From: Thermoanaerobaculia bacterium
GTDB taxonomy: Bacteria; Acidobacteriota; Thermoanaerobaculia; Multivoradales; JAIOJS01
Direction: 5' to 3'
Assembly: GCA_036005845.1 (NCBI GenBank)
Contig: DASYQD010000117.1
Span: forward strand, 49,581-113,580
DNA: 64,000 bases
Numbering within the stretch: position 1 is the first letter of the stretch; each line of letters opens with the position of its first letter. Made by a program: the position numbers and the translations under genes. Below are positions 15,461 through 51,756 of this stretch, in pieces. Below the pieces are notes generated by a model. That model was not told the origin of the DNA and ran no database searches. It worked only from the letters and a program-made list of their open reading frames with translations.

Positions 15461-15638
15461 GACTCTGTCCTCCTTGGCCTTGAGGCCGGCCATTCTACGC
15501 TCGTTTTCAGGCGTTTGATGCGCCCAAGTGGAAGATGGTGGGAGGCACCCTGCCGAGCCGACGGAAGGGACCGCGCGGTAGCCGCAAGACGGACTCGCTG
15601 GGAGGCTCTCAAAGGTATATGCGTAAAATCGCGGCGGC

Positions 15639-27242: not shown

Positions 27243-27818
27243 ATGCTGTGGCAACATGTGGCCTTCCGCCGGGAACCAGACTTGCCGCGAAAGCCGCCGC
27301 TCGTCGTCCGTTGCTCGCTCGTGCTCGCGCTCACGAGCGCCGCTGCCGCGTTCGCCGGCACCTCGACGGCGCCCAACCCGGTCGTCACCTTCAGCTCGCC
27401 GGGCACGAAGCAGGTGTCGCTGCAGGCCTGCAACAGCGGCGGCTGCAACACCGTGGTCAAGTCGGTGTCGGTGCTCGACCCGATGCCGGCGGTCACCAGT
27501 CTCCTCGCCACCCCCAACCCCGTCGTCCAGGGCGACACCGTCCATCTGACGGGTGTCGGCAATGGCGCGCCGCCGCTGACCTTCAACTGGCGCATCCTCG
27601 ACCCCGGCGGAACGCAAGTGGCGACATTCTCTGGCGCCAGCGCCGACTGGACCGTCAACGTCGCGCCCGGCGTCTACTCGGTCTACCTCGACCTCGGCAA
27701 CTCGCATGGTGTGCAGACGCCGCAGCCGGCGCCGGTCGTCGTGCTCATCACGCCTTTCATCTTCAGCGACGGCTTCGAGCAGGGGAACACCAACCTCTGG
27801 CTCAGCCCGCCGCCCTGA
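27243..27818 (+). CDS. Secreted PKD-domain protein with C-terminal IFSDGFEQG..W tag
   Basis: Hydrophobic signal ending AAFA. NPVVTFSSPGTKQVSLQACN and LTFNWRI PKD motifs; ends FIFSDGFEQGNTNLWLSPPP. The start may be slightly later. Confidence 0.7.
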   Translation: MLWQHVAFRREPDLPRKPPLVVRCSLVLALTSAAAAFAGTSTAPNPVVTFSSPGTKQVSLQACNSGGCNTVVKSVSVLDPMPAVTSLLATPNPVVQGDTVHLTGVGNGAPPLTFNWRILDPGGTQVATFSGASADWTVNVAPGVYSVYLDLGNSHGVQTPQPAPVVVLITPFIFSDGFEQGNTNLWLSPPP

Positions 27819-31818: not shown

Positions 31819-31871
31819 GGTGAGTGCGCCGTCATGATAGCGGCTAGGCTTGCCGCCGCCTGCCACCACCG

Positions 31872-32417
31872 ATGGACGACGACGCGCGGCTCATCGCCCT
31901 GCTGCTCGCCGGAGACGACGCAGCCATCGCCGAGGTGCGTGGCTGGGTCGCCGCCGCCGTGGGCCGCTATCGCGCGCGGCTCCTCGGCGACGCCGAGGAC
32001 CTCGAGCAGGAGGCGCTGCTCGACTTGATGGAGTCGCTGGCAAACGGCCGCTTCCGCGCCCAGAGCCGGCTCGCCACCTACGTCCACTCCTACGCCCGGT
32101 TCAAGTGCATCGACCGCCTGCGCACCCTCGGCCGCCGCGACATGGTCGAGCTCGACGACGAGGCGCTGCACACGGCGGCGCCATCGCCGCTCGAAGAGCT
32201 GACGCAGCGCGAGAGCGCGGAATTGGCGCAGCGGGTCGTCGCCGCGCTGCCCGCGGGCTGCCGGGAGCTCTGGGAGATGATCGCCGACGGCATGTCCTAC
32301 CAGGCGATGAGCGCGGCGATGGGCGTCGGCGAAGGCGCCATCCGCGTGCGCGTCCACCGCTGCCGGCAGCGGGCGCTCGCCATCCGACTGCGGCTGCTCG
32401 CCGGAGAGGACCTGTAA
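31872..32417 (+). CDS. ECF RNA polymerase sigma factor
   Basis: Region 2 DAEDLEQEALL...CIDRLR; region 4 MSYQAMS...GAIRVRVHRCRQ. Confidence 0.9.
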   Translation: MDDDARLIALLLAGDDAAIAEVRGWVAAAVGRYRARLLGDAEDLEQEALLDLMESLANGRFRAQSRLATYVHSYARFKCIDRLRTLGRRDMVELDDEALHTAAPSPLEELTQRESAELAQRVVAALPAGCRELWEMIADGMSYQAMSAAMGVGEGAIRVRVHRCRQRALAIRLRLLAGEDL

Positions 32418-32446: not shown

Positions 32447-33151
32447 GTGAAGGCACCCCTTGCCGTGACACCCTCCACGCCCGAGCCCTGCCGCCTCACC
32501 ACGCTGGCGCTGCCGTGGCTGCTCAACGGCAGCCTGGCGCCGGCGGAACGGTGCGAGGTGCGCGAGCACCTGATCCACTGCCCGAGCTGCCGCGCCGAGC
32601 TCGAGCGGACGCGCGAGACGCTGGTGGTGTTCCGTGCCGCCGCGGCGGCGACGGAGCAGCCGCGCGTGGCCGCGGCCGGCGCGACTCGGATCGCCAGCCG
32701 CGGCAGGGTGCTGCGGCCGCTGGCCTGGGCGGCGATGGTCGCCGCGATCCTGGGAAGCGCGTGGCTGGCGCGGACGTGGGTCGCCGGGCCCACGCCGATG
32801 CGCAGCGCCGAACGGCAACGGCAGGCACCGCCGTCCGCGCCAGCGGTCACGACGCCGGTGCGCATGGCCAGCGTCGCACCACTTGCCTCGCCGCCGCCGT
32901 CCGCCGCTCCGGTCTCCGCGTCGAGGCCGTCCGCGAGCGCCGCGCGGCCGCGGCGGCGCGCCGACAGCCACACCGCGGCGCCCACGCGTCCCGAGGTGAT
33001 CTCCGTGGCCAGCTTCGAGAACGGCACGGTCGCGTCGACGAACGGCGAGGTCGAGGTCGCGCCCGCCAGCTCGAAGATCTCGACGGTCGACTTCGAGAAC
33101 GGCGAGCTTGCCGGCAGTCAGATTCATGCCATACCTGGACGGATACAATGA
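32447..33151 (+). CDS. ZAS (zf-HC2) transmembrane anti-sigma factor with duplicated C-terminal FENG motif
   Basis: LPWLLNGSL...EHLIHCPSC (HxxxCxxC). One TM (LAWAAMVAAILGSAWLA), a Pro/Ala linker, then ISVASFENG and ISTVDFENGEL. Start is 32447 or 32465. Confidence 0.8.
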   Translation: MKAPLAVTPSTPEPCRLTTLALPWLLNGSLAPAERCEVREHLIHCPSCRAELERTRETLVVFRAAAAATEQPRVAAAGATRIASRGRVLRPLAWAAMVAAILGSAWLARTWVAGPTPMRSAERQRQAPPSAPAVTTPVRMASVAPLASPPPSAAPVSASRPSASAARPRRRADSHTAAPTRPEVISVASFENGTVASTNGEVEVAPASSKISTVDFENGELAGSQIHAIPGRIQ

Positions 33152-33198: not shown

Positions 33199-34779
33199 AT
33201 GCGTAGTGTCCTTCGTTCCACCGCCACGGCCGCCGCGCTGCTGCTGGCCGGCGCCAGCGGCCTGCTGGCCAACTCGATCGCGGTGCAGCCGGGCCGCCAC
33301 GGCGGTACCTGCGGCGTCAACAACACCAACAACGACCGCTACGGCGGCAACTGCGGCGCGCGCGTCACGCTCGACACCGGCGCTGCGCCGTTCGCCTACG
33401 TGCAGGACAACACGCCCTCGGGCGAAGGCGCTTACCGCGTCCGCTTCTACGTCAACACCAGCACGATGGCGTTCACCGCCGGCAGCTTCGACGTCTTCGC
33501 CGCCTACGATCCGGTGAGCGATCCGCCGGCCGGCAGCTCCGCCGGCACTCCGGTGCTGCGCGCCCAGCTCGGCAGCGGCAACCCGCGCGTGCTCAACGTC
33601 TTCGGGTTGCTCGACGCCGGCGGCGAGACGGCGATCGGTCCGTTCTCGATCGCCAGCGGCTGGCACGCCATCGAGATCGAGTGGACCCGCGCCGGCGCCG
33701 GCCAGAACAACGGCCACCTCAACCTCTGGCTCGACGGCGTCGCGCAGACCGGCACCAACGGCCTCGACAACGACACCCACACCATCAACACCGTCCGCTG
33801 GGGCTACGTTTCCGGCAGCCCGACGTTCAGCGGCCGCCTGCTGATCGACGAGTTCGCCTCGCAGCGCACCGGCCAGATCGGGCTCGTCCCCTTCACCGGC
33901 CAGCAGATGGCCGCCGACTTCGACGGCGACGGCGACGGCGACGTCGTCCTCGAGCGCAACGGCTCGTGGCTGTTCTACGACTACGCCACCGGCACCCTCG
34001 CCAACACGGTTGCCCTCGGCAGCGGCGGCTCGTGCATCCCCACTCCGGGTAACTACGACGGCGACTTCGACAGCGACATCTCCCGCCTCTGCTCGGGGGC
34101 GTGGCACTTCTACAACGCCAACGGCAGCTACGCGGGCGGCATCTGGACCGGCTCGCCGCCGGACGTCTATCCGGCGCCGGCGGACTACGACGGCGACGGC
34201 GACACCGACGTCGTCATCTTCGACAACGGCGCCTGGCACTTCTTCGCCTATCCCGGCGGCGCCTACCTCGGCGGCTACTGGACGGGCGGCTCCAACAGCC
34301 AGGTGCGTCCGGTGCCGCTCGACTACGACGGCGACGGCGCGGCCGAGCTCAGCCTCTACGGCCAGGGCGCCTGGCACTTCTTCAACGACAACGGGACTTA
34401 CAACCACGGTATCTGGATGGGCGACACGCCGGGCAACATCCCGGTGCCGTTTGACCGCGACGGCGACGGCGACGAGGACGCGGTGCTGTTCAACAACAAC
34501 AACACCTGGCACTTCTTCGACTTCGCGACGGGCGCCTACCAGGGCGGGGTGATCACGGCGCGCCCGGGCGGCGGCTCCTACACCAACCCGCAGCCGGCGC
34601 CGGTCGACGTCGACGGTGACGGCCACATGGAGCTGAGCGTCTACGAGGTCGTCGGTGGCAACGGGTTCTGGCACTTCTTCTCGAGCACCGGCACCTTCCT
34701 GAAGACGATCAACACCGGCGCCGCCAACAACGACAATCCGATCTCGCGCCGGTTGCGCGTGGCGTCGCCCGGCATCTAG
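33199..34779 (+). CDS. Secreted protein: jelly-roll/LamG-like N-terminal domain plus six-repeat DYDGDG propeller
   Basis: GAGGAG RBS and signal peptide. AYVQDNTP..YRVRFY..WHAIEIEW..LWLDG..LDNDT..VRWG..DEFASQR, then six DxDGDG/GAWHF repeats ending NPISRR. Confidence 0.8.
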   Translation: MRSVLRSTATAAALLLAGASGLLANSIAVQPGRHGGTCGVNNTNNDRYGGNCGARVTLDTGAAPFAYVQDNTPSGEGAYRVRFYVNTSTMAFTAGSFDVFAAYDPVSDPPAGSSAGTPVLRAQLGSGNPRVLNVFGLLDAGGETAIGPFSIASGWHAIEIEWTRAGAGQNNGHLNLWLDGVAQTGTNGLDNDTHTINTVRWGYVSGSPTFSGRLLIDEFASQRTGQIGLVPFTGQQMAADFDGDGDGDVVLERNGSWLFYDYATGTLANTVALGSGGSCIPTPGNYDGDFDSDISRLCSGAWHFYNANGSYAGGIWTGSPPDVYPAPADYDGDGDTDVVIFDNGAWHFFAYPGGAYLGGYWTGGSNSQVRPVPLDYDGDGAAELSLYGQGAWHFFNDNGTYNHGIWMGDTPGNIPVPFDRDGDGDEDAVLFNNNNTWHFFDFATGAYQGGVITARPGGGSYTNPQPAPVDVDGDGHMELSVYEVVGGNGFWHFFSSTGTFLKTINTGAANNDNPISRRLRVASPGI

Positions 34780-35203
34780 CCAAGCGGCGAGCCCTTCGGT
34801 CCCGCAGAGCTCTCGCCCGCAGCGGCGCTGGCCCTCCAAGCCGGCGCCCTGCGGGCGATTCTGGTTTTGGTCAGGGCAGCATGCGGCGCGAGATCGGGCG
34901 ATCGGTGCTGGCGGCGCCGGTGTTGACGGTGCGCAGGAAAGTGCCGTTGACCGAGAAGAAGTGCCAGAAGCCGGTGCCGCCCACCACTTCGTAGACGCCC
35001 AGCTCGGGCTTGCCGTCGCCGTCGAGATCGAGCGGCGCGGGACGGGGGTTGGTGTAGGCGCCGCCGCCGGGCCGCGGCGTCATCACGCCGCCCTGGTAGG
35101 CGCCGGTCGCGAAGTCGAAGAAGTGCCAGGAATTGTTGTTGTTGAACAGCACCGGGTCCTCGTCGCCGTCGCCGTCACGGTCGAACGGCACCGGGATGTT
35201 GCC
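34432..35203. repeat. Long imperfect inverted repeat formed by the 3' ends of two convergent propeller genes (arms about 34432-34751 and 34883-35203)
   Basis: Near-identical coding stretches such as GNIPVPFDRDGDGDED.VLFNNNN.WHFFDFATGAYQGGV, with long exact nucleotide matches. Confidence 0.85.
34813..34868 (+). terminator. Long hairpin with T-rich tail between the convergent genes
   Basis: TCGCCCGCAG (34813-34822) and CTGCGGGCGA (34849-34858) plus an inner GC stem, followed by TTCTGGTTTT. Confidence 0.65.
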
Positions 35204-35713
35204 GGCGGTGTTGCCGACCCAGATGCCCTTGAGGTAGCTGCCGTTCTCGTTGAAGAAGTGCCAGGCGCCCAGCGAGTAGAGGCTCTTGTCGGTGAAGCCG
35301 TCGCCGTTGAAGTCCAGCGGCACCGGCACAGCGCTGGGGTCGCTTCCCGTCCAGCGGCTGCGCGCGCTGTCGTAGGTGCCGGTGGTGTAATTGTAGAAGT
35401 GCCAGGCGCCGGCGTCGAAGAAGACGACGTCGGTGATGCCGTCGCCGTCGTAGTCGGCAGGCACCGGGAAAGCGCTCTGCGGCGCGCCCGTCCAAATGCC
35501 TTTGATGTAGCTGCCGTTGGCATTGTAAAAGTGCCAGGCGCCGGAGCAGAGCTGCGCGAAGTCGATGTCGCCATCGCCGTCGAAATCGCCGGGGGCCGGG
35601 ATGCAGGTGGGCCCGCCGCCGGTGACGATCGACTGCGCCCAGGCCGGCGACGCGGCGACGGCGAGCGATGCGGCGGCGAGCAGCCAGAAGCTTGCGAGGC
35701 GCAGTGGTCTCAT
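34871..35713 (-). CDS. Secreted five-repeat DYDGDG propeller protein lacking repeat 1
   Basis: GGAG RBS, ATG 35713, signal peptide MRPLRLASFWLLAAASLAVAASPAWA. Starts at the Cys-containing repeat 2 and ends RPISRRMLP. Confidence 0.85.
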   Translation of the reverse strand: MRPLRLASFWLLAAASLAVAASPAWAQSIVTGGGPTCIPAPGDFDGDGDIDFAQLCSGAWHFYNANGSYIKGIWTGAPQSAFPVPADYDGDGITDVVFFDAGAWHFYNYTTGTYDSARSRWTGSDPSAVPVPLDFNGDGFTDKSLYSLGAWHFFNENGSYLKGIWVGNTAGNIPVPFDRDGDGDEDPVLFNNNNSWHFFDFATGAYQGGVMTPRPGGGAYTNPRPAPLDLDGDGKPELGVYEVVGGTGFWHFFSVNGTFLRTVNTGAASTDRPISRRMLP

Positions 35714-35727
35714 CGTGACGTCTCCGC

Positions 35728-37296
35728 TCAATCGCCCGGCCACAGCGGGAACTCGATCCACGCGCCGGCGCCGCGGTAGACCCAGACCTCGGCGCGGCCG
35801 TCGCCGTTGAAGTCGCCCGCCGGCGCGTTGCGGCGCCGGTGGCAGGTGGTCGAGAGGCCGGCGACGAAGGCGTTCATCCGCGCCGACACGCGGTTGGGCT
35901 GGTTGCCGTAGGGGTGCGGCACGCCCGCCGCGGTGGCGCCGAAGGTCAGGCTGGTGTTGCTCATGAAGCTCGGCGCGATGTTGTGGCAGTAGCTCATGAT
36001 GGTGCCGTTGCCCTGGCCCTGCACGCCGCAGTTGGCGGTCCCCAGCGACGGCACGCAGGTGGCGCCGGAGTAGCAGGCCTGCAGCGTGCCGTTGACCGAC
36101 ATCTGCTCGCCCGAGGAGCAGCGGTCGACCTCCTGGCCGGCGCCGAAGAGCACGTTGTAGCAGTGGGTGTGCGGCGAGTTGAAGTTGTGGCCGATCTCGT
36201 GCGTGGCGCCGAGCAGGTCCCAGTTCACGGCGTTGGGGTTGGCGGGGTTGAAGGTGCCGCTGATGCCCATGGTGACGCCGTAGCCGCCGCCCCATTGGCC
36301 CGCGGCGCAGGTGCCGCCGGCGCTGAAGTCGGCCGAGCAGAGGACGCCGATCCAGGCGATTCCGGCGGTGGTGCTCTTGCCGCTCAGGAAATGAACGGTG
36401 CCACGCGGGAACGTCGGCCGGTTGGTGTGCCACCAGGTGCCGAGCTCGCACAGCGCCGTGGATGGGCTGGTGGCGGTCCAGGGATCGCTGGTGGTGGCGC
36501 CGGTCCACGCCGAGACCAGGTTGACGCGCAGCGTGGTGTTGACGTCGCGGTAGTAGATGGCCGACATCGCGCCCATCAGGTCGCCGATGTAGGCCGCCAT
36601 GGTGTCGACCGAGCCGAAGCGGTTGAACAGCTCGACGTCGGTCTCGATGGCGACGGTGATCGAGTAGAGCGCGGCGGCCTTGTCACCGGGCGCCGCCGGC
36701 TCGAAGGGAGCTGCCTCGGCGCCGGCGCCGAGCTCGTCGAGAGCGGTGGCGGGGACCGGCAGCGCGTCGGCGTCGCACTCGAAGCCGCGGGCGTCGGGCG
36801 CCGCGTCCGCCGCCGCCTTGGCGATCAGCGGCTCGCCGGCGAGGGCCGCGTCCGCGGCTCCGAGAACGTACGTCGCGCCGTCGGCGATGACCAGGCCGCG
36901 CACGTCCCCGGCCTCGCCGACGGAGAGGAAAGCCGTCGAGCTCGGATCGCCTTCGACGCCGCCCCGGAAGAACGTCCGGTTCGGCACCGCGTGCGTTGTC
37001 ACCTTGCTGCCGTTCTCGTGCACCACCACAACGGCGTCGGGCGTGAAGAGCTCGAAGCGTTCGAGGGTGAGGGCCACCTGGCGCTCTGCCAACGGCACGC
37101 CGGCGACGCGCAGGCCGCCGTCCACCGGCACTTGCCGCGCGCGGGCGGCGAGGGTTTCCTTCGGCAGCGTGAAGCTGAGCCGCATCTGCGCCGTCTGCGC
37201 GCCGGCGAGCGCGGGGCTCAGCGCGGCGAGGACGACCCAGAGGAGCGTCCAGGCCCGGCGGCGGCCCGTCCCGAGCCGGGGACGTCTAGGTGGCAT
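35728..37296 (-). CDS. Secreted M12/reprolysin-like zinc metalloprotease ending in a single DFNGDG repeat
   Basis: AGGAG RBS, signal peptide and prodomain. VAIETDVELF, GIAWIGVLC and HEIGHNFNSPH zinc motif, GTIMSYC Met-turn; C-terminus AGDFNGDGRAEVWVYRGAGAWIEFPLWPGD. Confidence 0.88.
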   Translation of the reverse strand: MPPRRPRLGTGRRRAWTLLWVVLAALSPALAGAQTAQMRLSFTLPKETLAARARQVPVDGGLRVAGVPLAERQVALTLERFELFTPDAVVVVHENGSKVTTHAVPNRTFFRGGVEGDPSSTAFLSVGEAGDVRGLVIADGATYVLGAADAALAGEPLIAKAAADAAPDARGFECDADALPVPATALDELGAGAEAAPFEPAAPGDKAAALYSITVAIETDVELFNRFGSVDTMAAYIGDLMGAMSAIYYRDVNTTLRVNLVSAWTGATTSDPWTATSPSTALCELGTWWHTNRPTFPRGTVHFLSGKSTTAGIAWIGVLCSADFSAGGTCAAGQWGGGYGVTMGISGTFNPANPNAVNWDLLGATHEIGHNFNSPHTHCYNVLFGAGQEVDRCSSGEQMSVNGTLQACYSGATCVPSLGTANCGVQGQGNGTIMSYCHNIAPSFMSNTSLTFGATAAGVPHPYGNQPNRVSARMNAFVAGLSTTCHRRRNAPAGDFNGDGRAEVWVYRGAGAWIEFPLWPGD

Positions 37297-37392
37297 GGTG
37301 AGTGTCTCCTGGGCGATCAGCATCGAGCCAAACTCTTCACACCGCACAGCCAGCAGAATGCGTACCAGCAGCCGCTCTAGAATGGGCAACGC

Positions 37393-40223: not shown

Positions 40224-43200
40224 TTACGGAGTCACGGCCGACCAGGGCCGATTGCCGGCCTCGAAGCCGTTGACGAAGAGCTCAACGCTCTCGAGATCGA
40301 AGTCGATGCCGTCGACCAGCGCGTCGTGGCTCGCGACCGCGATCGGCGTGCCCTTGGTGGGATCGCACAGACCCTGATATGCCGGCCCCTGCGGACACGG
40401 CAGGTTGTTCCACACCTCTTCCAGCGCGCCCATCCCACTGTCGGTCGAGGCATAGTAAGTTCCCGGATTGGGCACGAAGTGATAGCCCCCCTGAGGCCCT
40501 GTCAGGGTGCTGTCGACGTGCTCGCCGGCGGCGTCCCAGAGGTCGATGGCGACCCCAGACAAGGGATGGCCGTGGTCGGTCACGCGTCCGTCGATGCCGC
40601 GTGCGTACGAGAGCACGAAATCGATGTTGGCCGTCGTGTTCCCTGTCGTCACGACCACCGGCGTGCCGGTGGTTACGTCGCAGGAACCGAGGCAGCGAAT
40701 CCCTGAGTAGAGCTGGCCGACGAGCTCCGACCCACCGTAGGCGACCAAGTACCAGGTCCCGGGCTCGCTCGGGAGCTGGTAGTGGCCTCCTGCGTCGGTG
40801 GAGGCGTAGCCGCGATATTGGCCGGTGGCGTTGTAGAGATAGATCGTGACGTAGGGCGGCGTGGTTCCGCTGGTGTCGGTGACCAAGCCGGTGATGACAC
40901 CGGACTGTGAGAGCCCGAAGTCGATGGCCGTTGTAACGGTACCGAGCGTTACCGGGATCGGTGTCCCGGCGGTCGGGTTGCAACTTGCGCTGGGGCAGGG
41001 CAAATTGTTGTAGAGCTCGGCATCGTATTGGTTGTTGTACGGGTAGGAATCCGCGACCGCGAAGTAGTTACCCGCGTCGAGGCCGTTGACCTGATACGTG
41101 CCGTTGCTCGCGCTGTAGGTCGAGGCGACCAGCGTGCCGCTGCTGTTGTAGATCCAGACATACGAAGAAGGCAGCGGCGCCGACGTCACCGCGTCGCGAA
41201 CGGTACCGGCAATTCCCCCCTTGCGCACGAGGGCGAAGTCGATTCCCGCGGTCGGCGCGCCCAAGCTGACGGCGACGCTCGTGCCGTTCGCCGGGTTGCA
41301 GCCCGTCGGCGCACCACCGGGACAGGGGATGTCGTCGTAGAGCTCGTCGATGAACTCGTAGCTCTCGGCCACGACGAAGTAGTTGCCGGGCACGAGACCA
41401 TAGATCTGGTACGTGCCGGTGTTGCCGCTATAGGTGTAGCCCACGAAGTTGCCGGAGCTGTCCCACACCTCGACTTCGACGCCGCCGGCCGGTGCACTCG
41501 AAGCATCGGTGACCGTGCCGGCGATGCTTCCGAGCGTCGTCAGCGCGAAGTCGATGCCGTTGGTGTCCGCATCCAGCACTACCGACACGGGAGTCCCGGT
41601 CGTCGGATCGCAAGTCCCCAGGCAGGGGATGTCGTCATATAGCTCACTGCGATAGTAGTAACGGCTGGCACGCACGTAGTACGTGCCAGGGAGCAGGCCG
41701 GTGGCCGAGTACGAGCCGCCGTAGGAGTAACCGTAGGCAACGTAGGTGCCGGCCGCGTTGTAGATATCGACATAGGAATAATCGGACAGGGGATCGCCGG
41801 TGACCGCGTCCGTCAAGTGGCCCGAAATCGAGCCCAGCTTCCGCAGCGCGAAGTCGATCCCACCGGTGGTGTGATCGAGAGCCACGGAGAACGCGGTGCC
41901 GCCGGCGACGTTGCACGAGGGCTCGCAGGGCACGTCGTCGTAGAGCTCGTCCAGGTACCCGCTCCAGGTCTGGCTGGTTGCGTAATACGTTCCTGCGTTC
42001 AACCCGCCAGCCAGGTATTGGCCCGCTGCGTTGGTGTAACCGTATGAACGCTGAGAGCCTTGCGCATCCAGGATGTCGACCCGTGCATAGGTGATCGGCG
42101 CGCCGTCGGCGACTTGCGTGACCGTCCCGGCGACGACTCCGAACCGGTCGAGAAAGAAGTCCACGCCGGGAGTCGTCTGTCCGTCGGCGACCGGAATCGG
42201 CGTTCCATTCGTCATCGTGCAGCTCGGCACGCACGGGATGTCCTGGTAGAGCTCTCGGCGATACTCCGAGTTGGAGGAATCGCCGGCAACGGCGAAGGCC
42301 GTGCCGCCGGCGAGGCCGCTTACCAAGTAGCGGCCCGCCTGGTCCGTCTCCGCCATGGCGGCCAGCCCGCCGTTGGCGCCGTAAACGGCTACGTCGGCGT
42401 AGGGAAGAGCCGCGCCGGTGGCAGCATCGCGAACGCGGCCCGCGACGCTGGCGCCGTGTCCGAGCGCGAAGTCGATGCCGGTGTGAACGGCGCCGCTCTG
42501 AACCACGATCGGTGTCCCGGTCGTCGGCGTGCAGCCGGATGGAGCTCCGCCAGCGCACGGGATGTCGGCGTAGAGCTCGTCCAGGAAGCCGTCGGGATAG
42601 TAAAAGTCGCCTTGCGTCGAGGCGTAGTACGTACCAGGGCTCAAGCCGAGGACCAGATAGCTGCCGTCGCCGGCCGTGTAGTCATACCCGGCGTAAGAAC
42701 CGTTGGCGTTCCAGACCTCGACGTAGCGGTCGACGAGCGGCCCCGCGGTTGCCTCGTTGGTGACGGTGCCCGAGATCCCGGCCGAGCCACCCTCGATCTG
42801 TATCGTGGCGGTGCCCGTCGCCTGCTCCCAGCCCCGGGTGCGGATCCAGGTGGTCTCGCCGGCGGCGACGCGAAGGACGGTGCGGCCTTGCAACCCGACC
42901 TCGTCGTCGCCGTGAGCGCGTGGGGTGCCGCTGGATCCAGGGCAAGCATCGAACCAATCGACGACGGTGTCGAAGTCGGACCCGGCAGTGCTGACCACCG
43001 CCATGCCGCCCACCTTGGCCGTGTAGCGAAGCCAGATCTCGCCGCTGGTGCCGTCAGCGCGCCGGACGACCTCGCCCTGGTAGCTGCCGTCCACGACGTC
43101 GATGGCGCTGGCGCAGCTCGCAGCCGCGCCGGCATCGAACACGGTGGCGGGCTGCCGCGGCTCCCAAAACGAGGTCGGCGAGCTCGGCACGCTGCTGGCG

Positions 43201-43610
43201 CGCTCCCGGCTCTCCACCTCGCGGAGAAGGGGCATCAGGACCCCCGCCTTGCGGGCCAGGTCGCGCCCTTCCGCCGTCATCTGCTTCCTGGCTGACTCAC
43301 GCAGCACGTCGGCGAGATCCCTGAGCTCGGCTGTCTTTGCACCAGCTTCTGGAAGCTGGCGGGTCTCAGGACGCGAGATGGTGTTCAGTCGTCGACGCAG
43401 CAACCGCTCCAGGCGCCAGATCGCATCGCGGAGCGCTACGTGCTCGCTGCTCGACGAGTCCTGCGCGGCGGACGCCTTGGGCGCGGGTTGCGATGCCGTC
43501 GTGGACCGGGCGGTCTCCGTCGCGGCCCCGTCGGCCATGCCCGGTGATACCGCGGCGGCGATGAGAATGATGCCAGCCACGGCCGCCCGGCGAAGTTCAG
43601 TTGGAAACAT
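40224..43610 (-). CDS. Large secreted protein with eight carboxypeptidase-regulatory-like (prealbumin fold) repeats and C-terminal LFVNGFEAG..W tag
   Basis: Signal peptide, helical segment and PPC-like domain. Eight ~100-aa repeats (GxIxGxVxD...GxYxxxGLxPGxY...ELYxxIPC...C...GTPxxV...IDFxL); ends LFVNGFEAGNRPWSAVTP. Confidence 0.85.
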   Translation of the reverse strand: MFPTELRRAAVAGIILIAAAVSPGMADGAATETARSTTASQPAPKASAAQDSSSSEHVALRDAIWRLERLLRRRLNTISRPETRQLPEAGAKTAELRDLADVLRESARKQMTAEGRDLARKAGVLMPLLREVESRERASSVPSSPTSFWEPRQPATVFDAGAAASCASAIDVVDGSYQGEVVRRADGTSGEIWLRYTAKVGGMAVVSTAGSDFDTVVDWFDACPGSSGTPRAHGDDEVGLQGRTVLRVAAGETTWIRTRGWEQATGTATIQIEGGSAGISGTVTNEATAGPLVDRYVEVWNANGSYAGYDYTAGDGSYLVLGLSPGTYYASTQGDFYYPDGFLDELYADIPCAGGAPSGCTPTTGTPIVVQSGAVHTGIDFALGHGASVAGRVRDAATGAALPYADVAVYGANGGLAAMAETDQAGRYLVSGLAGGTAFAVAGDSSNSEYRRELYQDIPCVPSCTMTNGTPIPVADGQTTPGVDFFLDRFGVVAGTVTQVADGAPITYARVDILDAQGSQRSYGYTNAAGQYLAGGLNAGTYYATSQTWSGYLDELYDDVPCEPSCNVAGGTAFSVALDHTTGGIDFALRKLGSISGHLTDAVTGDPLSDYSYVDIYNAAGTYVAYGYSYGGSYSATGLLPGTYYVRASRYYYRSELYDDIPCLGTCDPTTGTPVSVVLDADTNGIDFALTTLGSIAGTVTDASSAPAGGVEVEVWDSSGNFVGYTYSGNTGTYQIYGLVPGNYFVVAESYEFIDELYDDIPCPGGAPTGCNPANGTSVAVSLGAPTAGIDFALVRKGGIAGTVRDAVTSAPLPSSYVWIYNSSGTLVASTYSASNGTYQVNGLDAGNYFAVADSYPYNNQYDAELYNNLPCPSASCNPTAGTPIPVTLGTVTTAIDFGLSQSGVITGLVTDTSGTTPPYVTIYLYNATGQYRGYASTDAGGHYQLPSEPGTWYLVAYGGSELVGQLYSGIRCLGSCDVTTGTPVVVTTGNTTANIDFVLSYARGIDGRVTDHGHPLSGVAIDLWDAAGEHVDSTLTGPQGGYHFVPNPGTYYASTDSGMGALEEVWNNLPCPQGPAYQGLCDPTKGTPIAVASHDALVDGIDFDLESVELFVNGFEAGNRPWSAVTP

Positions 43611-43698
43611 GAGGGCTCTCCAGAGATAAGGCACGAAAACGTCATGCAGCCGATCAGTGGGCCGCGAACATAGGACGGACTACTTTCGGGGTCATGCC

Positions 43699-43727
43699 AT
43701 TTTCGGCTCGGTATGCTGTTATGTCAA
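43699..43727 (-). promoter_or_regulatory. sigma70-type promoter for the eight-repeat protein
   Basis: Minus strand TTGACA (43722-43727), 17 nt, GAAAAT (43699-43704). Confidence 0.5.
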
Positions 43728-43761
43728 ATCCGGAGTGCCACCCGCGCTATCCTCTTGCCCC

Positions 43762-45231
43762 GTGCTCTCCCTCTCAGTCGTCGTGCCCGTCTACAACGAG
43801 CGCTACCTCGTCGTGGAGTCGGTGCGCCGCGTCCTCGCCGCGGCGCCCTCGTGGGACGGCGTTTCCGCCGTCGAAGTGCTGGTAGTCGAGGATGGCTCGA
43901 CCGACGGCACCCGCGAGATCCTGCGTGAATTCGCCGCCGCCGAGCCGCGCATCACGCTGATCGAGCATGCGAAGAACAGCGGCAAGGGCGCCGCGGTACG
44001 TACCGGCATCGCGGCGGCGCAGGGCGACCTCATCGTCTTCCACGACGCCGATCTCGAGTACGACCCGCGCGACATCGGGCGGCTCGTCAAGCCGTTCCTC
44101 GAAGACGGCGCCGACGTCGTCTACGGCTCACGCTTCTCGGCGTCGGAGCGCCGACGGGTCCTCTACTACCGCCACACGCTCGGCAACAAGCTGATCACCT
44201 TCCTCTCCGACATGGCGACCGACTTGAACCTCACCGACGTCGAGACCTGCTACAAGATGTTCCGCTCGACGCTGCTCAAGTCGCTGCCCATCCGCTCCAA
44301 CGACTTCCGGTTGGAGATCGAGGTCACCGCCAAGATCGCCAAGCGGCAGGCGCGCATCTTCGAGGTGCCGGTCTCGTACGTCGGGCGCACCTATCGCGAA
44401 GGGAAGAAGATCGGCTGGCGCGACGGCTTCAAGGCCTTGGGTGCCATCACCAAGTACTGGGTGGTCGACGACCTCTACGCCGACGACCCGTGGGGCGGCG
44501 CCATCCTGCACAACCTCGAGCGCGCGCGCCGCTTCAACCGTTGGATGGCCGACGCCATCCGCCCCTACCTTGGCGCGCGGGTGCTGGAGATCGGCGCCGG
44601 CATCGGCAACCTCACGCACTGGCTGCTGCCGCGCGAGCGCTACGTGGCGAGCGACATCAACCCGCAATATCTCGCCTACCTGCGCAACGGCACGGTGGGA
44701 AAGCCCTACCTCGAGGTGGCGCGCGTCGATCTCGAGGACCCCGCGAGCTTCGCGGCCTTGCAGGGGCAGTTCGACACCATCGTCTGCCTCAACGTGCTCG
44801 AGCACGTGCGCGACCCAATCCAGTCGCTGCACAACATGCACGGCGCGCTGGCGCCGGGCGGACGGCTGGTGCTCTACGTGCCGCAGGGGCAGGGCCTCTA
44901 TTCGACGCTCGACGAGGCGCTGGCGCACCGCGTGCGCTACGACCAGCGGATGCTCGGCGACGAGCTGCAGAAGACGGGCTTCGCGCTCGAGCATCGCGTC
45001 GACTTCAACCGCGCCTCGGTGCCGGCCTGGTGGCTCAACGGCAAGGTGCTGCGGCGGCGCAACTTCTCGCGGCTGCAGCTCAAGGGCTTCGATTGGACGG
45101 TGCCGCTGCTGCGCCGCGTCGACCGCTGGATCCCGTGGCGCGGGCTGGGGCTCATCGCCGTGGCGCGCAAGCCGGTCGAGGCGGCGGGCGAGGTCGAGGC
45201 GAAGCCGGCGGCGCTCGCCGCCGCGAGCTAG
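43762..45231 (+). CDS. GT2 glycosyltransferase fused to a class I SAM methyltransferase
   Basis: SVVVPVYNE, VEDGSTDG, GKGAAVRTG, HDADLEYDP and TDVETCYK, then VLEIGAGIG and NVLEHV. Confidence 0.88.
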   Translation: MLSLSVVVPVYNERYLVVESVRRVLAAAPSWDGVSAVEVLVVEDGSTDGTREILREFAAAEPRITLIEHAKNSGKGAAVRTGIAAAQGDLIVFHDADLEYDPRDIGRLVKPFLEDGADVVYGSRFSASERRRVLYYRHTLGNKLITFLSDMATDLNLTDVETCYKMFRSTLLKSLPIRSNDFRLEIEVTAKIAKRQARIFEVPVSYVGRTYREGKKIGWRDGFKALGAITKYWVVDDLYADDPWGGAILHNLERARRFNRWMADAIRPYLGARVLEIGAGIGNLTHWLLPRERYVASDINPQYLAYLRNGTVGKPYLEVARVDLEDPASFAALQGQFDTIVCLNVLEHVRDPIQSLHNMHGALAPGGRLVLYVPQGQGLYSTLDEALAHRVRYDQRMLGDELQKTGFALEHRVDFNRASVPAWWLNGKVLRRRNFSRLQLKGFDWTVPLLRRVDRWIPWRGLGLIAVARKPVEAAGEVEAKPAALAAAS

Positions 45232-45357
45232 CTCGCCGAGTCGCGGGCAACGCGATCAACGGCGCGCGCGCGTTGCGCGTATGAAGGCATGCCCGCGCCC
45301 GCGCGGCGAGCAGTCTCACAGTCAACGGGTTTCGCGGGCGCCCGAGGAGGACGTGCC

Positions 45358-47346
45358 ATGGGCCGCCCAGTGTTCTCGCCGCGAGCCGCCGATGCGCTCG
45401 CTCTGCTGCTGATGGCCTGCGTGAGCGCGATGCCGGCGCGAGCCGGTGTCGACAGCTGGACGCCGTTCGGCCCCGGGCAGGGCCGCATGGTCTCGGTCGC
45501 CGCGTCCTCGCGCGGCGATCTCTTCGCCGTCACGGCGTTCGGCGACCTCGCGGAGATCTGGCAGCTGCCGGCCGGCACGGCGACGTGGCGCTGGCGCAAC
45601 AACGGGCTCGGCCGCCCGGCGGTGACGGCCTTTGCCGTGCATCCGACGCAGCCCGATTCCCTCTGGGCGGCCACCGGCGGCCCGACCGCTGCGATCTTCC
45701 ATTCGACCGATGCCGGCGCCACGTGGCTGCGCGTCGCCGCTGGCCCCGCGGACTTCCCGATCAGCCAACTGCGGGTGATGCCGCTGCGCAACTCGGTGGT
45801 CCTCTTCGCCCAGCGGGGCGGCGTCTCTGCGCCGGTGCTGCTGCGCAGCGCCGACGGCGGCGTCACCTGGTCGGCGGTGACGGACGCGTGGGGGCCGGTG
45901 GCGCCGGCGATCGACCACCGTGGTTTGGTGTACGCCTCGGCGGTCGGGTTCCCCGGCCTGGTGAGGAGCACCGACGGCGGCCAGACCTTCCGGCCGGTGC
46001 AGATCGGCGTGCGCCTCATCGAGCAGCTACGCGCGTTGCACGTCACGCGCGGCCGCAGCCCGCTGGTGTTCGCCTCGTTCAGCAGCGGTTTGTACCGCAG
46101 CACCAACGGCGTGCGCTTCGAGCGTGTCGGGTTCTCCAACGAGCCGCCTTCAGCGGTTGCTTCGGATCCGCGCGACTCGCGGCGGATCTACGTCACCACC
46201 GACCTCGGCTTGTACTCCAGCTCGCGCCTCGGCCGCGCCGGCAGCTTCCGCAGCGAGGCTTCGTTCTTCTACGCTCCGTTTCCCACGCCGACGGCGCTCA
46301 TCGTTCCACCGGTGGGGCCGCTGTTCCTCAGCGAGGGCGACCTTCGCGGCAGCGGTCTCGGCTCCATCTCGGAGCGGGGCATCGCCGGCTTCGGAGCTTC
46401 CGAGATGCGCATCGCGGAGGCCGATCCGACCGCCATCGCGGTTCGCGAGTACACGCAATGCGCGCCGCAGTGCGACCTCCGCACGCTGCTCTCCTACGAC
46501 GGAGGATTCAGCTTCATTCGGCGCGGCATTCAGGTCCTGCCGCATTCCTTCGTGGACGCGCGCGATTTTGCTTTCGATCCGGCATCGTCCCGGCGGTGGC
46601 TGGAGCTCAGCGCCGGCGTGGTCCTGGTGGACGCAGCCGGCTTGCACCTGCTCAGTCCAACCGTGGTCAATACGACGCCCACCGCGGTGGAGATCGGCGC
46701 GGCCGGTGCGCTGCTCGTCGGCGCGGGAGGCGGAGTGCTGGTGAGCCGCGACGACGGCGCCAGCTGGGCGACGACGCTCGGCAACCCGGGACCGTTCGGT
46801 CCGTCGACGGTGATCGACCTGCGAGCGGACGTCGGAGCGCCCGACGGCGTGCTGGCGCTGGTAGTCGAGCCCCGCATCGTCGATCCACCGACGCCGGCGA
46901 AGCTCCTCGCCTTTCGCAGCGTTAACGCCGCTGCGCACTGGAGCCCGGTGCTGCCCGCAGTCGAGGGGCTGCTCGATGTGGAACCCGTGCCCGGGTCGCC
47001 GACGACGCTCTTCGCGCTCTTCGCGGTCGCCGGCGGCAGCGAGCTGCGGCGCAGCGATGACGGCGGCGTGACGTCGGTGCCCGTCCACACCTTCACGACC
47101 GCCGAAGCGGTGGCCGATTTCGCGCTCGACGCAGTGGCGCCCGACGTGCTCTACGCCGCCAGCGCCACCGGCGTGCTGCGCAGCCGCGACGGCGGCGCCA
47201 CCTGGGAGAGCACGCCCGGAACGCTCGACGCCTGGGGCGCCTATCGCCAACGCCTGCAGCACGTGTGGGTCCACCCGAGCGAGCCCGGCCACGTCTTCGC
47301 CGCCCCCGCCGACGGCGGCCTGTTCGAGAACCGGTTGAGCGACTAG
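45358..47346 (+). CDS. Secreted BNR/Asp-box (sialidase/YCF48-like) beta-propeller protein
   Basis: GAGGAGG RBS and signal peptide. Repeated S-x-D-x-G-x-T-W Asp boxes (STDAGATW, SADGGVTW, STDGGQTF, SRDDGASW, SRDGGATW). Confidence 0.8.
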   Translation: MGRPVFSPRAADALALLLMACVSAMPARAGVDSWTPFGPGQGRMVSVAASSRGDLFAVTAFGDLAEIWQLPAGTATWRWRNNGLGRPAVTAFAVHPTQPDSLWAATGGPTAAIFHSTDAGATWLRVAAGPADFPISQLRVMPLRNSVVLFAQRGGVSAPVLLRSADGGVTWSAVTDAWGPVAPAIDHRGLVYASAVGFPGLVRSTDGGQTFRPVQIGVRLIEQLRALHVTRGRSPLVFASFSSGLYRSTNGVRFERVGFSNEPPSAVASDPRDSRRIYVTTDLGLYSSSRLGRAGSFRSEASFFYAPFPTPTALIVPPVGPLFLSEGDLRGSGLGSISERGIAGFGASEMRIAEADPTAIAVREYTQCAPQCDLRTLLSYDGGFSFIRRGIQVLPHSFVDARDFAFDPASSRRWLELSAGVVLVDAAGLHLLSPTVVNTTPTAVEIGAAGALLVGAGGGVLVSRDDGASWATTLGNPGPFGPSTVIDLRADVGAPDGVLALVVEPRIVDPPTPAKLLAFRSVNAAAHWSPVLPAVEGLLDVEPVPGSPTTLFALFAVAGGSELRRSDDGGVTSVPVHTFTTAEAVADFALDAVAPDVLYAASATGVLRSRDGGATWESTPGTLDAWGAYRQRLQHVWVHPSEPGHVFAAPADGGLFENRLSD

Positions 47347-48140
47347 CCGAAGAGCTCGCCTTCGAGTGCCTTCGCGCGCTCGGCCGAGAGGCCGAGCGCG
47401 GCGGCGAAGGTGCCGAGCCACGCCGCCTCGGCCGGCAAGACGCCGGCGTCGGTCATGGTGACGAGAGCGGCGAAGCGGTAGAGGAGCTCGCGGTCGGCGT
47501 CGGTGGCGGCCATCGCCGCCAGCTCTTCGGGCGAGGCGGGCATCAGCAGCTCGCGGCGCACCTGCGCCGCCTGCTCCTCGGGGAGCTCGCTGCTGCCCAG
47601 CCGCTTCTGGATGCGGGCGCGCTCGGCGGGCGAGAGCGTGCCGTCCGCGAGCGCGGCGGCGACCATCGTGCGCACGACGGCAAAGAGCGTCGCCGCTGGC
47701 AGCTCGGCTCCCGCCTCGCTGGCGTTGCCACCAATCTCCGTTGCGGGCGCGGCATCATCGGCCGCCGGCACGTCCGAAGGTGGAGGAGGCGGCAGCCACG
47801 CCGGCGGCACCGCTGCCGCATCGTCCATGTCCACGGACGGCGGAGGCGGCGGCGACCACGCAGGTGCCGCGCCGCCCGCGACGTCCCGCGAACCGGGCGG
47901 AGGCGGCGGCGGTGGCGGCGGTGGCACGGAACCGGGCGGCGCCCAGGTCGACGGTCCGCCCGCCGCGCCCGGCTGCTGGCTGTGCACCATCTCGTTGATG
48001 AACGCTCCCGCCAGCGCCGCGCCACCGGCGAGCAGCAGCGGGCTGCCCACCGCGCGCCGCACGAGGCGCCGCGTCACGCGCGGCGAGACGCCGATCGACT
48101 CGGAGATCAGGTCGCCGACGAGACTGTCGAGGAAACCCAT
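47343..48140 (-). CDS. DUF533/TerB-like protein with proline-rich linker
   Basis: C-terminal VRTMVAAALADG.L...ER.RI TerB-like domain, N-terminal GGAALAG segment, poly-Pro tracts. Confidence 0.7.
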   Translation of the reverse strand: MGFLDSLVGDLISESIGVSPRVTRRLVRRAVGSPLLLAGGAALAGAFINEMVHSQQPGAAGGPSTWAPPGSVPPPPPPPPPPGSRDVAGGAAPAWSPPPPPSVDMDDAAAVPPAWLPPPPPSDVPAADDAAPATEIGGNASEAGAELPAATLFAVVRTMVAAALADGTLSPAERARIQKRLGSSELPEEQAAQVRRELLMPASPEELAAMAATDADRELLYRFAALVTMTDAGVLPAEAAWLGTFAAALGLSAERAKALEGELFG

Positions 48141-48167
48141 GGCTCGTTCTCTCCGCTTGCCGCCGGC

Positions 48168-49217
48168 TCAGCCGCCGATGCGGTACATCTCTACGCGCGG
48201 CGCCGGCACGCCATGCCCGGCCGCCAGTCGCTCGGCGCGCTCCTCGGAGTAGCGGTCGGCGCGGCGGCCCCAGAAGTCGGCGATGCGTGCCGCGAGCTCG
48301 TCGTCGCTCTCGCCGGCGCGCAGCGGCGTCTTGAGGTCGAGGCCGGTGCTGGCGAAGAGGCAGGCGAAGAGCTGGCCGTCGGCGGTGAGCCGGGCGCGCG
48401 AGCAGTCGCCGCAGAAGGGCTGGCTCACCGAGGCGATGACGCCCAGCTCGCCTGCATCTTCACCTTGGCCGTCGCGATAGCGGAAGCGCAGCGCCACGTC
48501 GTGCGCGTGGCGGCGCGGCGCCGGCTCGAGCGGCAGCTCGGCACCGACGCGGGCGACGATCTCCTCGGCGCTCACCACGCCGCCGGGCTGCCAGCCGTTG
48601 ACGGTGCCGACGTCCATGTACTCGATGAAGCGCAATACGAAGCCCGGCCGCTTGAAGAAGCGCGCCAGCTCCACCACCTCGTCGTCGTTCACACCGCGCA
48701 TGACGACCGCGTTGACCTTGATCGGCGCCAGGCCGGCCGCGGCCGCCGCCTCGATCCCGGCGAGCACGCCGGCAAGCTGGCCGCGGCTGCCGCTCAGGCG
48801 ATCAAAGGTCTCCGGCCGCAGGCTGTGCAGGCTGACAGTGACGCGCGCGAGGCCCGCGGCGCGCAGCGCCGCCGCGTCGCGGGCGAGCAGCAGCCCGTTG
48901 GTCGTCAGCGCCAGGTCGTCGATGCCCGGCGTCGCGGCGAGCAGCGTCACCAGCCGGTGCAGATCGCGGCGCAGCAGCGGCTCGCCGCCGGTGAGCCGCA
49001 CCTTGCTGACGCCGAGGCCGGCGAAGACGCGCACCAGCCGCGCCGTCTCCTCGTAGGTGAGCAGCTCGGCTCGCTGCAGGAACGTGTACTCGCGATCGCC
49101 CGGCATGCAGAAGCCGCAGCGCAGACTGCAGCGGTCGGTGACCGAGACACGGAGGTCCGTGAGCGGCCGGCCGAGAAAGTCGCGGGGCGGAGCGAGGTCG
49201 CGGGGCGGTGGCAGCAC
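48168..49217 (-). CDS. moaA: GTP 3',8-cyclase
   Basis: LRVSVTDRCSLRCGFCMP (radical SAM CxxxCxxC), RLTGGEPLLR, FCGDCSRARLTADG...C and C-terminal RIGG. Confidence 0.95.
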   Translation of the reverse strand: MLPPPRDLAPPRDFLGRPLTDLRVSVTDRCSLRCGFCMPGDREYTFLQRAELLTYEETARLVRVFAGLGVSKVRLTGGEPLLRRDLHRLVTLLAATPGIDDLALTTNGLLLARDAAALRAAGLARVTVSLHSLRPETFDRLSGSRGQLAGVLAGIEAAAAAGLAPIKVNAVVMRGVNDDEVVELARFFKRPGFVLRFIEYMDVGTVNGWQPGGVVSAEEIVARVGAELPLEPAPRRHAHDVALRFRYRDGQGEDAGELGVIASVSQPFCGDCSRARLTADGQLFACLFASTGLDLKTPLRAGESDDELAARIADFWGRRADRYSEERAERLAAGHGVPAPRVEMYRIGG

Positions 49218-49319
49218 GGCTCGATTGTAGCGACCATCCGCTCCGGCGGGCGGGCGTTGGCAGATGGTTGGCAGACGACCGACGCCCGCTGGTAGACTCT
49301 GCGCCGCGAGAGCGAGCCC

Positions 49320-49658
49320 ATGATCGTCGAAAAACGCCGCATCGAGGATTCCACCCTGCTCAACGTCGAGGGCGTCATCAAGCTCGGCGAGAGCGCGCAG
49401 TTCTTCGCCCAGGCCCTGGAGCGCGCGCTGGAGGAGGACGAGGGCAACGTGCTCGTCGACTTCTCGCGCATCAACTACATCGACTCCACCGGCATCGGCG
49501 AGCTGGTCGGCTACCTGGGACGCTTCCGCGACCGCAATCGCAAGCTCATCCTCATCAACCCCTCGGACCGCATCCGCAAGCTGCTGGCGATCGCGCAGCT
49601 CGACCGCCTGTTCACCATCTACGACAGCCTCGAGACGGCGCTCCATACGGAGAAGTAG
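49320..49658 (+). CDS. STAS domain anti-sigma factor antagonist
   Basis: VDFSRINYIDSTGIGELV (phosphorylatable Ser). Confidence 0.9.
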   Translation: MIVEKRRIEDSTLLNVEGVIKLGESAQFFAQALERALEEDEGNVLVDFSRINYIDSTGIGELVGYLGRFRDRNRKLILINPSDRIRKLLAIAQLDRLFTIYDSLETALHTEK

Positions 49659-49686
49659 CCTGGGTCTCACTGACCCGGATGGTCGC

Positions 49687-50217: not shown

Positions 50218-50256
50218 CGTAGAAAGGCCTTCGGCGGGATTCGGAAGGAGACCTCG

Positions 50257-51735: not shown

Positions 51736-51756
51736 CGGAAGCTGCGCGAGTTACTC

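Follow-up and report, generated by a model that had tools for sequence, protein, structure and literature searches.

A Thermoanaerobaculia anti-sigma factor carries the first strand of a jelly-roll domain on its tail and may report occupancy of a neighboring strand-less acceptor

The closest described counterparts of the system considered here are the extracytoplasmic function (ECF) anti-sigma factors of the zinc-binding anti-sigma (ZAS) type, the class of RsrA, ChrR, RslA, and RsdA. To our knowledge, the inputs of most ECF/anti-sigma pairs are unknown, and we know of almost nothing about the envelope biology of uncultured soil Acidobacteriota. We analyzed a gene of this kind at positions 32447 to 33151 of a 64,000-nucleotide stretch from a Thermoanaerobaculia bacterium (contig DASYQD010000117.1, positions 49,581 to 113,580; ~70% G+C), which, taken whole, we call the window. 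Its product is like the ZAS class in having an N-terminal HxxxCxxC domain, a gene placed directly after that of an ECF sigma factor, and one membrane helix. Unlike that class, however, it has no folded extracytoplasmic sensor, and the membrane helix is followed by a predicted disordered tether bearing, among its orthologs, one or two strand-like motifs. A motif of the same kind closes secreted proteins, and it corresponds to the first strand of a jelly-roll domain that the product of the next gene, the candidate acceptor, carries without that strand. Read jointly, these observations suggest, with a chance that we judge to be about even, that such tags dock by strand complementation on the acceptor that lacks this strand, and that the anti-sigma factor would thereby read how far the acceptor is occupied.

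Several other systems share parts of this logic. In the RseA/RseB/DegS system of Escherichia coli, the periplasmic part of a single-pass anti-sigma factor is bound by a separate protein, and activation proceeds via the C-terminal peptides of envelope proteins. The likeness lies only in the logic of occupancy and competition and is drawn by analogy: there is no sequence or domain relation, the protein described here is of the ZAS type, and the anti-sigma factor itself would carry the peptide-like signal. Neither an RseB-like protein nor a PDZ protease is present in the locus, and since no DegS-type protease or PDZ domain was seen there, the comparison with DegS drawn in a preliminary description of this DNA stays conceptual. 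The cohesin-dockerin and RsgI systems of cellulosomal clostridia are similar in combining short C-terminal modules of secreted enzymes, SLH-anchored acceptors, and a sigma/anti-sigma pair wired into the same system. The folds, however, are unrelated, the tag described here is a single strand of ~15 residues whereas a dockerin has ~70, the anti-sigma factor bears the tag rather than the carbohydrate-binding module of RsgI, and the hosts are diderm Acidobacteriota. Donor-strand complementation in chaperone-usher pili and the SpyTag/SpyCatcher pair likewise complete a strand-deficient domain with another polypeptide, as we infer for this locus, but here the domain is neither Ig-like nor of the CnaB kind but a predicted ConA-like jelly roll, and there is neither a chaperone or usher nor any sign of a covalent bond. 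Finally, the predicted fold of the acceptor and the start of the motif resemble ConA-like jelly rolls (polysaccharide lyase families PL7, PL14, PL20, and PL36, the Hc-N domain of botulinum neurotoxin [BoNT], and domains of the CBM4/9 type starting GFE.G...W), whereas the acceptor family itself falls below every Pfam and NCBIfam threshold. No description of the tag, the acceptor domain, or a strand-complemented anti-sigma factor was found in the literature, Pfam, or NCBIfam.

The central features of the locus are as follows (AF2, AlphaFold2).

31872 to 32417, + strand: ECF sigma factor of 181 residues (Pfam Sigma70_r2 and Sigma70_r4_2 above their cutoffs; TIGR02937 sigma70-ECF at 61.7 bits).
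32447 to 33151, + strand, probable start GTG at 32465: ZAS anti-sigma factor with a zinc-finger anti-sigma domain, one membrane helix, and a disordered tail.
32489 to 32593, + strand: zf-HC2 anti-sigma core, residues 15 to 49 (Pfam PF13490 at 28.5 bits against a cutoff of 22.2).
32714 to 32782, + strand: single predicted transmembrane helix, residues 90 to 112 (the sole hydrophobic segment; a helix in the AF2 model).
32783 to 32995, + strand: disordered tether rich in Pro, Ala, Ser, and Arg, residues 113 to 183 (from composition and AF2).
32999 to 33025, + strand: tag copy 1, ISVASFENG (ortholog consensus VIFxTSFESGSLAxL).
33077 to 33109, + strand: tag copy 2, ISTVDFENGEL (ortholog consensus ISTxDFENGxLxxW, then the stop codon).
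33199 to 34779, + strand: candidate acceptor of 526 residues, with a signal peptide (33199 to 33270), a jelly roll without its first strand (33271 to 33882), and six FG-GAP blades (33916 to 34776).

Translation of 32447 to 33151 gave the protein of the preliminary description, namely a zinc-binding domain, one transmembrane helix, a Pro/Ala linker, and two motifs. G+C content at third codon positions (GC3) is 0.82 to 0.97 in this frame up to about position 33110 and lower in the other frames, which identifies the frame as the coding one. Translation probably starts at GTG 32465 rather than at 32447, since the later start fits the ortholog lengths and a 228-residue database protein (P0001). The sigma gene, whose product is 66 to 82% identical to that of every orthologous locus, ends 29 to 47 nucleotides before the anti-sigma start in the same orientation, an arrangement kept in all eight loci described below. 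A homolog search over 5.8 billion proteins returned 20 matches to the anti-sigma factor, every one with zf-HC2, which were aligned with the window protein (alignment A1, 21 sequences). The HxxxCxxC motif reads HLIHCPSC (residues 41 to 48; 32567 to 32590), and H41, C45, and C48 are invariant in this alignment, as are W94, A95, A96, A99, and W106 of the membrane segment (Kyte-Doolittle 19-mer maximum, 1.47). AF2, run with 21 homologs, modeled a three-helix anti-sigma domain at residues 13 to 69 (predicted local distance difference test [pLDDT], 86 to 95). On the defining features checked in its sequence, the product belongs to the ZAS (zf-HC2) class and is a predicted binder of zinc and sigma factor. 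The tether (24% Ala, 21% Pro, 14% Ser, and 14% Arg) ranges in length among orthologs from 0 to about 110 residues, and AF2 modeled residues 113 to 234 without any secondary structure (pLDDT of about 50). Since the modeled tail is unstructured, the two motifs are best regarded as linear motifs on a disordered tether rather than as a small domain, and a self-folding mini-domain built from both was ruled out on the same model.

The preliminary description had made its proposal depend on conservation of the FENG motif, and the motif was kept in all 24 orthologs examined. This set includes proteins beyond alignment A1, for which the genome loci L007, L008, L014, and L021 were also inspected; in the genome scan, all orthologs came from uncultured Thermoanaerobaculia (Acidobacteriota). 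The core I....FE.G persists in 24 of 24 even though the proteins are otherwise only 40 to 55% identical. Across the 21 aligned proteins, I185 and G193 are invariant and F190 is conserved in at least 90%, while the linker around them is free to vary. Most orthologs carry two copies separated by a spacer of about 20 to 45 residues. The shortest and deepest-branching orthologs have one fully canonical copy, for example LFHDGFDAGRLDGW or, directly before the stop codon, QIFTDNFDRGSASGWREQL, and fully canonical copies such as LFHDGFDAGRLDGWETQL, likewise at the stop codon, occur among deep-branching and some other orthologs; canonical single copies at genome loci include PLFHDGFDAGRLDGWETQL (L008) and EEIFSDNFDNGAAMGWRP (L021), both at the stop codon, and SIFSGGFENGDLGEWQ (L007). 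Neither tag nor acceptor was found with distant ZAS relatives in Planctomycetota, Desulfobacterota-like metagenome-assembled genomes, and Rohdeia (L009 to L013). On these sequences, the tagged anti-sigma factor is restricted to the Thermoanaerobaculia family found here.

The source of the motif became apparent from the acceptor domain. An exhaustive profile search with this domain (E up to 0.001) returned 4648 cluster representatives, and family members often occur as 2 to 6 tandem copies inside giant RHS/YD-repeat or adhesin-like proteins (P0027 to P0174). The consensus of 76 canonical copies starts IFADGFESGDLSAWS and reads IFADGFESGDLSAWSSSSTDGGDLSVSAAAALVGSYGLQAVIDD...YRARFYFDPNS...NNGGLTLWIDG...DNDTRRID.VRLGAV...YFDAFESRRQTYIG, so that the canonical domain opens with the tail motif itself. 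In P0025, the motif stands in cis at the domain start (LIFKDGFETGSFSAWSGS...), aligned from position 1 of the hidden Markov model (HMM), and a weak Pfam match on the same protein likens the first-strand motif to the start of CBM_4_9. No Pfam or NCBIfam model reaches its threshold for the jelly-roll domain, and the family is unannotated. We built a first-strand HMM from the first 20 consensus positions, using only cis copies of other lineages or phyla, and ran it on six-frame open reading frames. Its two best matches in the window (120,000 residues) were the two C-terminal tags of secreted proteins described below, and when five loci were added to the window (254,000 residues in total), almost all top matches lay no more than 11 residues from a stop codon. 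The anti-sigma factors of L007, L006, and L002 were among the top matches. Ortholog copy 1 aligns with HMM positions 1 to 11 and ortholog copy 2 with positions 5 to 14. At the level of sequence comparison, these results establish that the tail motif and the first strand of the jelly roll (IFxDGFESGxLSAW) are homologous. A divergent subtype whose internal copies have no first strand was also seen (P0110, P0117, P0154, and P0163).

Conversely, the strand that the anti-sigma factor carries is the one missing next door. The canonical-domain HMM matched the window acceptor at positions 28 to 205 only (95.8 bits; independent E value, 4e-30), and the other acceptors scored 42 to 141 bits. Acceptors from all eight loci (the window, L001, L002, L006, L007, L008, L014, and L021) and 17 database representatives align only from position 21 to 36 onward, and the first strand (positions 1 to 15) was absent from every signal-peptide-led acceptor examined. 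Among the representatives, the first strand was present in 216 of 234 internal copies compared with 2 of 19 signal-peptide-led first copies (Fisher P = 6e-15). In the simplest acceptors, the mature protein begins at the second strand, with cleavage after Ala followed by GSLTVQAGSRYAGGYGL... or GTLTVRPG.... The acceptor domain of ~205 residues has no Pfam match, and FG-GAP_3 covers the blades. AF2 modeled the acceptor domain of the window, from 6 sequences, as all-beta with 14 strands (pLDDT, 76; predicted template modeling score, 0.79), and the top Foldseek matches in the PDB were PL36, PL20, PL7, and PL14 lyases and BoNT Hc-N (probability 1.0; TM score, 0.45 to 0.55). On this model the domain has the features of a ConA-like lectin/glucanase jelly roll. 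What follows the domain differs: FG-GAP blades in the window and L001, a single blade in P0022, SLH repeats in L002, L006, L007, and many representatives (Pfam E = 4e-11 and 6e-8), and nothing in L008 and L021, where the acceptor is the bare domain.

The same motif closes secreted proteins. Those cited by the preliminary description (genes 27243 to 27818 and 40224 to 43403) do end in such tags, and the fully canonical copies of some orthologs make the tail motifs of one kind with the C-terminal F..GFE.G....W tags, as had been proposed. The two tags of the window and the genes of a neighboring metalloprotease and FG-GAP protein are located as follows.

27756 to 27800, + strand: first-strand tag FIFSDGFEQGNTNLW at the C terminus of a secreted PKD-domain protein (gene 27243 to 27818), which ends in FIFSDGFEQGNTNLWLSPPP and the stop codon.
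40242 to 40280, - strand: first-strand tag LFVNGFEAGNRPW at the C terminus of a secreted protein with eight CarboxypepD_reg domains (gene 40224 to 43403), which ends in LFVNGFEAGNRPWSAVTP and the stop codon.
35728 to 37326, - strand: reprolysin-like (M12B) zinc metalloprotease (Pfam Reprolysin_5, _3, and _4).
34871 to 35716, - strand: secreted FG-GAP protein with five blades, encoded after the metalloprotease gene and oriented like it.

The tag of the PKD-domain protein was the top first-strand HMM match in the six-frame translation of the window (14.4 bits, 5 residues before the stop codon) and is kept in the L001 ortholog. The tag of the CarboxypepD_reg protein ranked second, and its L001 ortholog ends in IFKSGFESGDGAWLFSP at the stop codon. 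In L001, L002, L006, and L007, the reprolysin (M12B) metalloprotease encoded directly upstream of the ECF gene ends in a tag, for example IFSNGFETGLAPPWSGKVP before the stop codon. Further tagged proteins are a CAP-domain protein in L002 and additional proteins in L006. The tags stop 1 to 11 residues past the Trp, with no hydrophobic segment following. No Pfam or NCBIfam model matched the tag C termini, the curated sorting-signal models giving no match there even at E values up to 1, and the sole Por_Secre_tail match was internal, within the CarboxypepD_reg repeats. Known sorting signals (LPXTG, PEP-CTERM, GlyGly-CTERM, MYXO-CTERM, and the T9SS CTD) were rejected as identities of the tag on the missing model match and the missing hydrophobic helix. 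Elsewhere in the window, two adjacent secreted proteins (1595 to 2278 and 2298 to 5396, both + strand) end in a similar motif (SFGNNKIYANGTNGAPTATVPQI and SLGNNKVSGNVTNGTPTQTVPNQ, each at the stop codon), a further C-terminal element that proteins of the window share; the product of the second gene is an S8 subtilase that also has a beta-helix region.

The gene order ECF sigma factor, tagged anti-sigma factor, strand-less acceptor was found in all eight independent loci (the window, L001/L004, L002/L005, L006, L007, L008, L014, and L021). Each locus has one such jelly-roll domain, always directly after the anti-sigma factor, and none of the cargo tags in the loci examined is followed by a hidden rest of the domain. 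The next gene, which had been put forward as a candidate acceptor, is therefore a credible one, adjoining the anti-sigma gene in 8 of 8 loci and encoding a jelly roll without exactly the strand of the tag. A search seeded with an acceptor not of the Thermoanaerobaculia type returned four matches on short contigs, two of them informative. In these two (L019 and L020), a reprolysin ending in IFGDSFESGTTNVWQ and PFSDSFEAGTTNAWQ, respectively (GTIFGDSFESGTTNVWQ and SLPFSDSFEAGTTNAWQ, each at the stop codon), lies directly upstream of an acceptor in which a signal peptide and the strand-less domain are followed by SLH repeats, and no sigma or anti-sigma gene stands between them. Since tagged protease and acceptor are here paired alone, they form a two-gene module, and on gene order the sigma/anti-sigma pair sits between the protease and acceptor genes in the window's family.

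The tail of the window's own anti-sigma factor has several peculiarities. Its two FENG motifs are located where they had been described, 26 codons apart. The exact 13-bp repeat that they were said to share is also real, with CTTCGAGAACGGC occurring twice in the window against none expected (100 shuffles), and it falls within a 28-nucleotide direct repeat (32998 to 33025 and 33076 to 33103; 79% identity, 78-nucleotide spacing). That the same four residues are encoded by preferred G/C-ending codons is enough to account for the identity of the 13-mers, and the repeat would need no DNA-level function of its own. Ortholog tails end one or two residues past the Trp (W-Q/R/H), whereas the window gene runs on to 33151 with 11 to 14 last codons (33110 to 33151; the final 11 encode SQIHAIPGRIQ) that are A/T ending and low in GC3 and have no ortholog counterpart. 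Compared with L001 DNA, the Trp codon TGG appears in the window minus its T, and the former stop codon now reads TCA. An assembly frameshift or indel was rejected as the cause: an independent contig from a soil-metagenome run is identical to the window over this odd C terminus at about 10x depth, and a base insertion would make the frame read into the next gene. The odd C terminus is real divergence. Similarly, the anti-sigma factor of L014, the closest relative of that in the window, ends in DFENGAI. An ATG overlapping the anti-sigma stop codon (ATGA, 33148 to 33151) opens the acceptor frame 17 codons ahead of ATG 33199; the low GC3 and the ortholog lengths favor the start at 33199, which has a GAGGAG ribosome-binding site.

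From these elements we propose the following circuit. The anti-sigma factor would be the membrane partner of the adjacent ECF sigma factor, its outer part serving as a tether that displays linear motifs in place of a folded sensor, two in the window's clade and one in deep branches. The tail motif would insert into, or augment, the strand-less jelly roll and so tether the acceptor to the anti-sigma factor, while tagged metalloproteases and PKD and CarboxypepD_reg proteins would dock on the same acceptor, such that the anti-sigma factor would report acceptor occupancy. If cargo displaces the tail, or if too little acceptor is available, the tail would lose its protection and be degraded, and regulated proteolysis would release the sigma factor; the acceptor would thus play an RseB-like protective role for the tail. 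Since the acceptor gene follows the sigma/anti-sigma pair in the same orientation, such a circuit could match the supply of acceptor to the cargo load. The parts of this proposal differ in strength. Docking, in which the strand would bind the strand-less domain through complementation or edge augmentation, seems to us fairly probable, whereas competition between the anti-sigma factor and tagged cargo for acceptor sites is about half as probable as docking itself. We also infer which way the switch would work and that proteolysis would take part in it.

Several observations weigh against this proposal. No site-1, site-2, or PDZ protease was seen among the ~50 annotated genes of the window. The membrane helix is moderately hydrophobic, and the positive-inside signal is weak (4 versus 3), so the N-in/C-out topology would follow from family knowledge: since the anti-sigma domain of this family acts in the cytoplasm, the tail would lie outside it. 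The two tail copies in the window are degenerate: the Trp is missing, the residue before Phe is Ser or Asp instead of Gly, and the first-strand HMM scores them at about -2 bits. The aligned part of most Thermoanaerobaculia acceptors is preceded by a Cys-rich N-terminal stretch of ~25 residues (NSIAVQPGRHGGTCG...RYGGNCG) that could in principle occupy the vacant strand position; its first residues were modeled by AF2 as a weak strand (pLDDT of about 54). Finally, in L018 a distant acceptor-like gene adjoins an unrelated ZAS/ECF pair without a tag. That gene (P0026; 2686 to 5134) is convergent to the pair and has an inserted beta-helix-like segment, and the anti-sigma factor of the pair has a folded periplasmic domain.

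These points leave room for other explanations. The acceptor might instead be a detachable sensor on which the tail docks constitutively, the signal being whatever its lectin-like face or its variable C-terminal part binds, with an envelope polysaccharide and cell-wall state as candidates. The predicted ConA-like fold, akin to polysaccharide lyases and lectins, fits this idea, as do the variation of the C-terminal part (FG-GAP, SLH, or none), the glycosyltransferase genes that surround the locus in the window, L001, L002, and L021, and the bare-domain acceptors of L008 and L021, which have no tagged protease nearby. It would leave unexplained, however, why the same strand ends unrelated secreted proteins and why tagged proteases stand beside the module in six loci, and we consider it unlikely, if still worth serious attention. 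A second idea is that the motif is read by another machine, for sorting, secretion, processing, or proteolysis of the C-terminal F..GFE.G...W, with the anti-sigma factor acting as a pseudo-substrate that reports the load. Like sorting signals, the tag stands at the extreme C terminus of many Sec-dependent proteins, and cargo tags share an additional W..(K).P end that the anti-sigma factor does not have. Yet no Pfam or NCBIfam sorting-signal model matches, the tag has neither the hydrophobic helix nor the basic tail of exosortase, sortase, and rhombosortase signals, the loci share no conserved candidate machine, and the complementarity between tag and strand-less domain, together with the 8 of 8 adjacency, would be left without a reason; we regard this as rather improbable. 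It is more doubtful again that the motif is a functionless relic, left when the gene of an ancestral anti-sigma factor with a full jelly-roll sensor was split after the first strand. It is true that motif and strand are homologous, that the remaining part of the domain is encoded immediately downstream, and that the copies of the window and L014 appear to be decaying (Trp lost; L014 ending in DFENGAI), but a relic would hardly keep its I....FE.G core in 24 of 24 orthologs within a freely varying linker, be duplicated with both copies retained, or close unrelated proteins as the same orphan strand. Chance low-complexity likeness in a G+C-rich frame, or a wrong frame, is suggested by the alternative frames open across the region, but is refuted by the in-frame GC3 and by the motif in the 20 database homologs and has next to no probability.

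The wider setting of the locus offers further observations. In every long locus the module lies amid envelope-polysaccharide genes rich in glycosyltransferases and methyltransferases (window 9098 to 31869 and 43657 to 56582; L001, L002, and L021), and polysaccharide pyruvyl transferase genes in L001 and L002 fit anchoring of the SLH type. An CTAGNCTT element occurs 20 to 80 nucleotides upstream of the ECF start in the window (31844 to 31851), L001 (9376 to 9383), and L006 (5304 to 5311). It is thus conserved in three species and may serve the operon as a promoter or operator. It has one match in the window against about 1.2 expected and, since there is no second match there, gives no information on a regulon, so its candidacy as a shared ECF-regulon promoter was set aside. 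The reprolysin of the window ends in one FG-GAP-like blade (DFNGDGRAEVWVYRGAGAWIEFPLWPGD and the stop codon) instead of a first-strand tag, and the five blades of the downstream protein together with this one could, on sequence, be a second split-domain pair of the locus, five blades plus one; the fused acceptor has six. The same blade tail closes the reprolysins of L001 (12549 to 14926) and L014 (1543 to 4850), and it is also found on P0022, a short acceptor whose gene precedes a separate gene for an FG-GAP protein. A secreted protein encoded at 13817 to 15493 (- strand) has a Peptidase_S74 domain and a coiled-coil-like C terminus; Peptidase_S74 is the intramolecular chaperone of endosialidase, typical of phage tail fibers.

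Returning to the proposal that the anti-sigma factor reads acceptor occupancy, the ECF/anti-sigma pair described here offers a concrete candidate for an input: a linear motif of 10 to 15 residues whose partner would be encoded next door. We suggest tentatively, and with less confidence than for the window itself, that Thermoanaerobaculia, and probably other lineages, possess a split-domain docking system made up of a tagged secretome of proteases and adhesin-like proteins, strand-less acceptors, and an anti-sigma factor with decoy strands, in which transcription would be set by competition between cargo and anti-sigma factor. If docking is true, it would represent a new way of attaching secreted enzymes to envelope anchors, in which a strand completes a split jelly roll, and a regulatory circuit that measures anchor occupancy; it would also give a function to a large domain family (the 4648 representatives) for which Pfam and NCBIfam have no model. 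A natural peptide/acceptor pair of such size could, moreover, serve as a tag in protein engineering. If the proposal as a whole is true, this anti-sigma factor would be the first to take as its input a docking tag that the secretome also carries.

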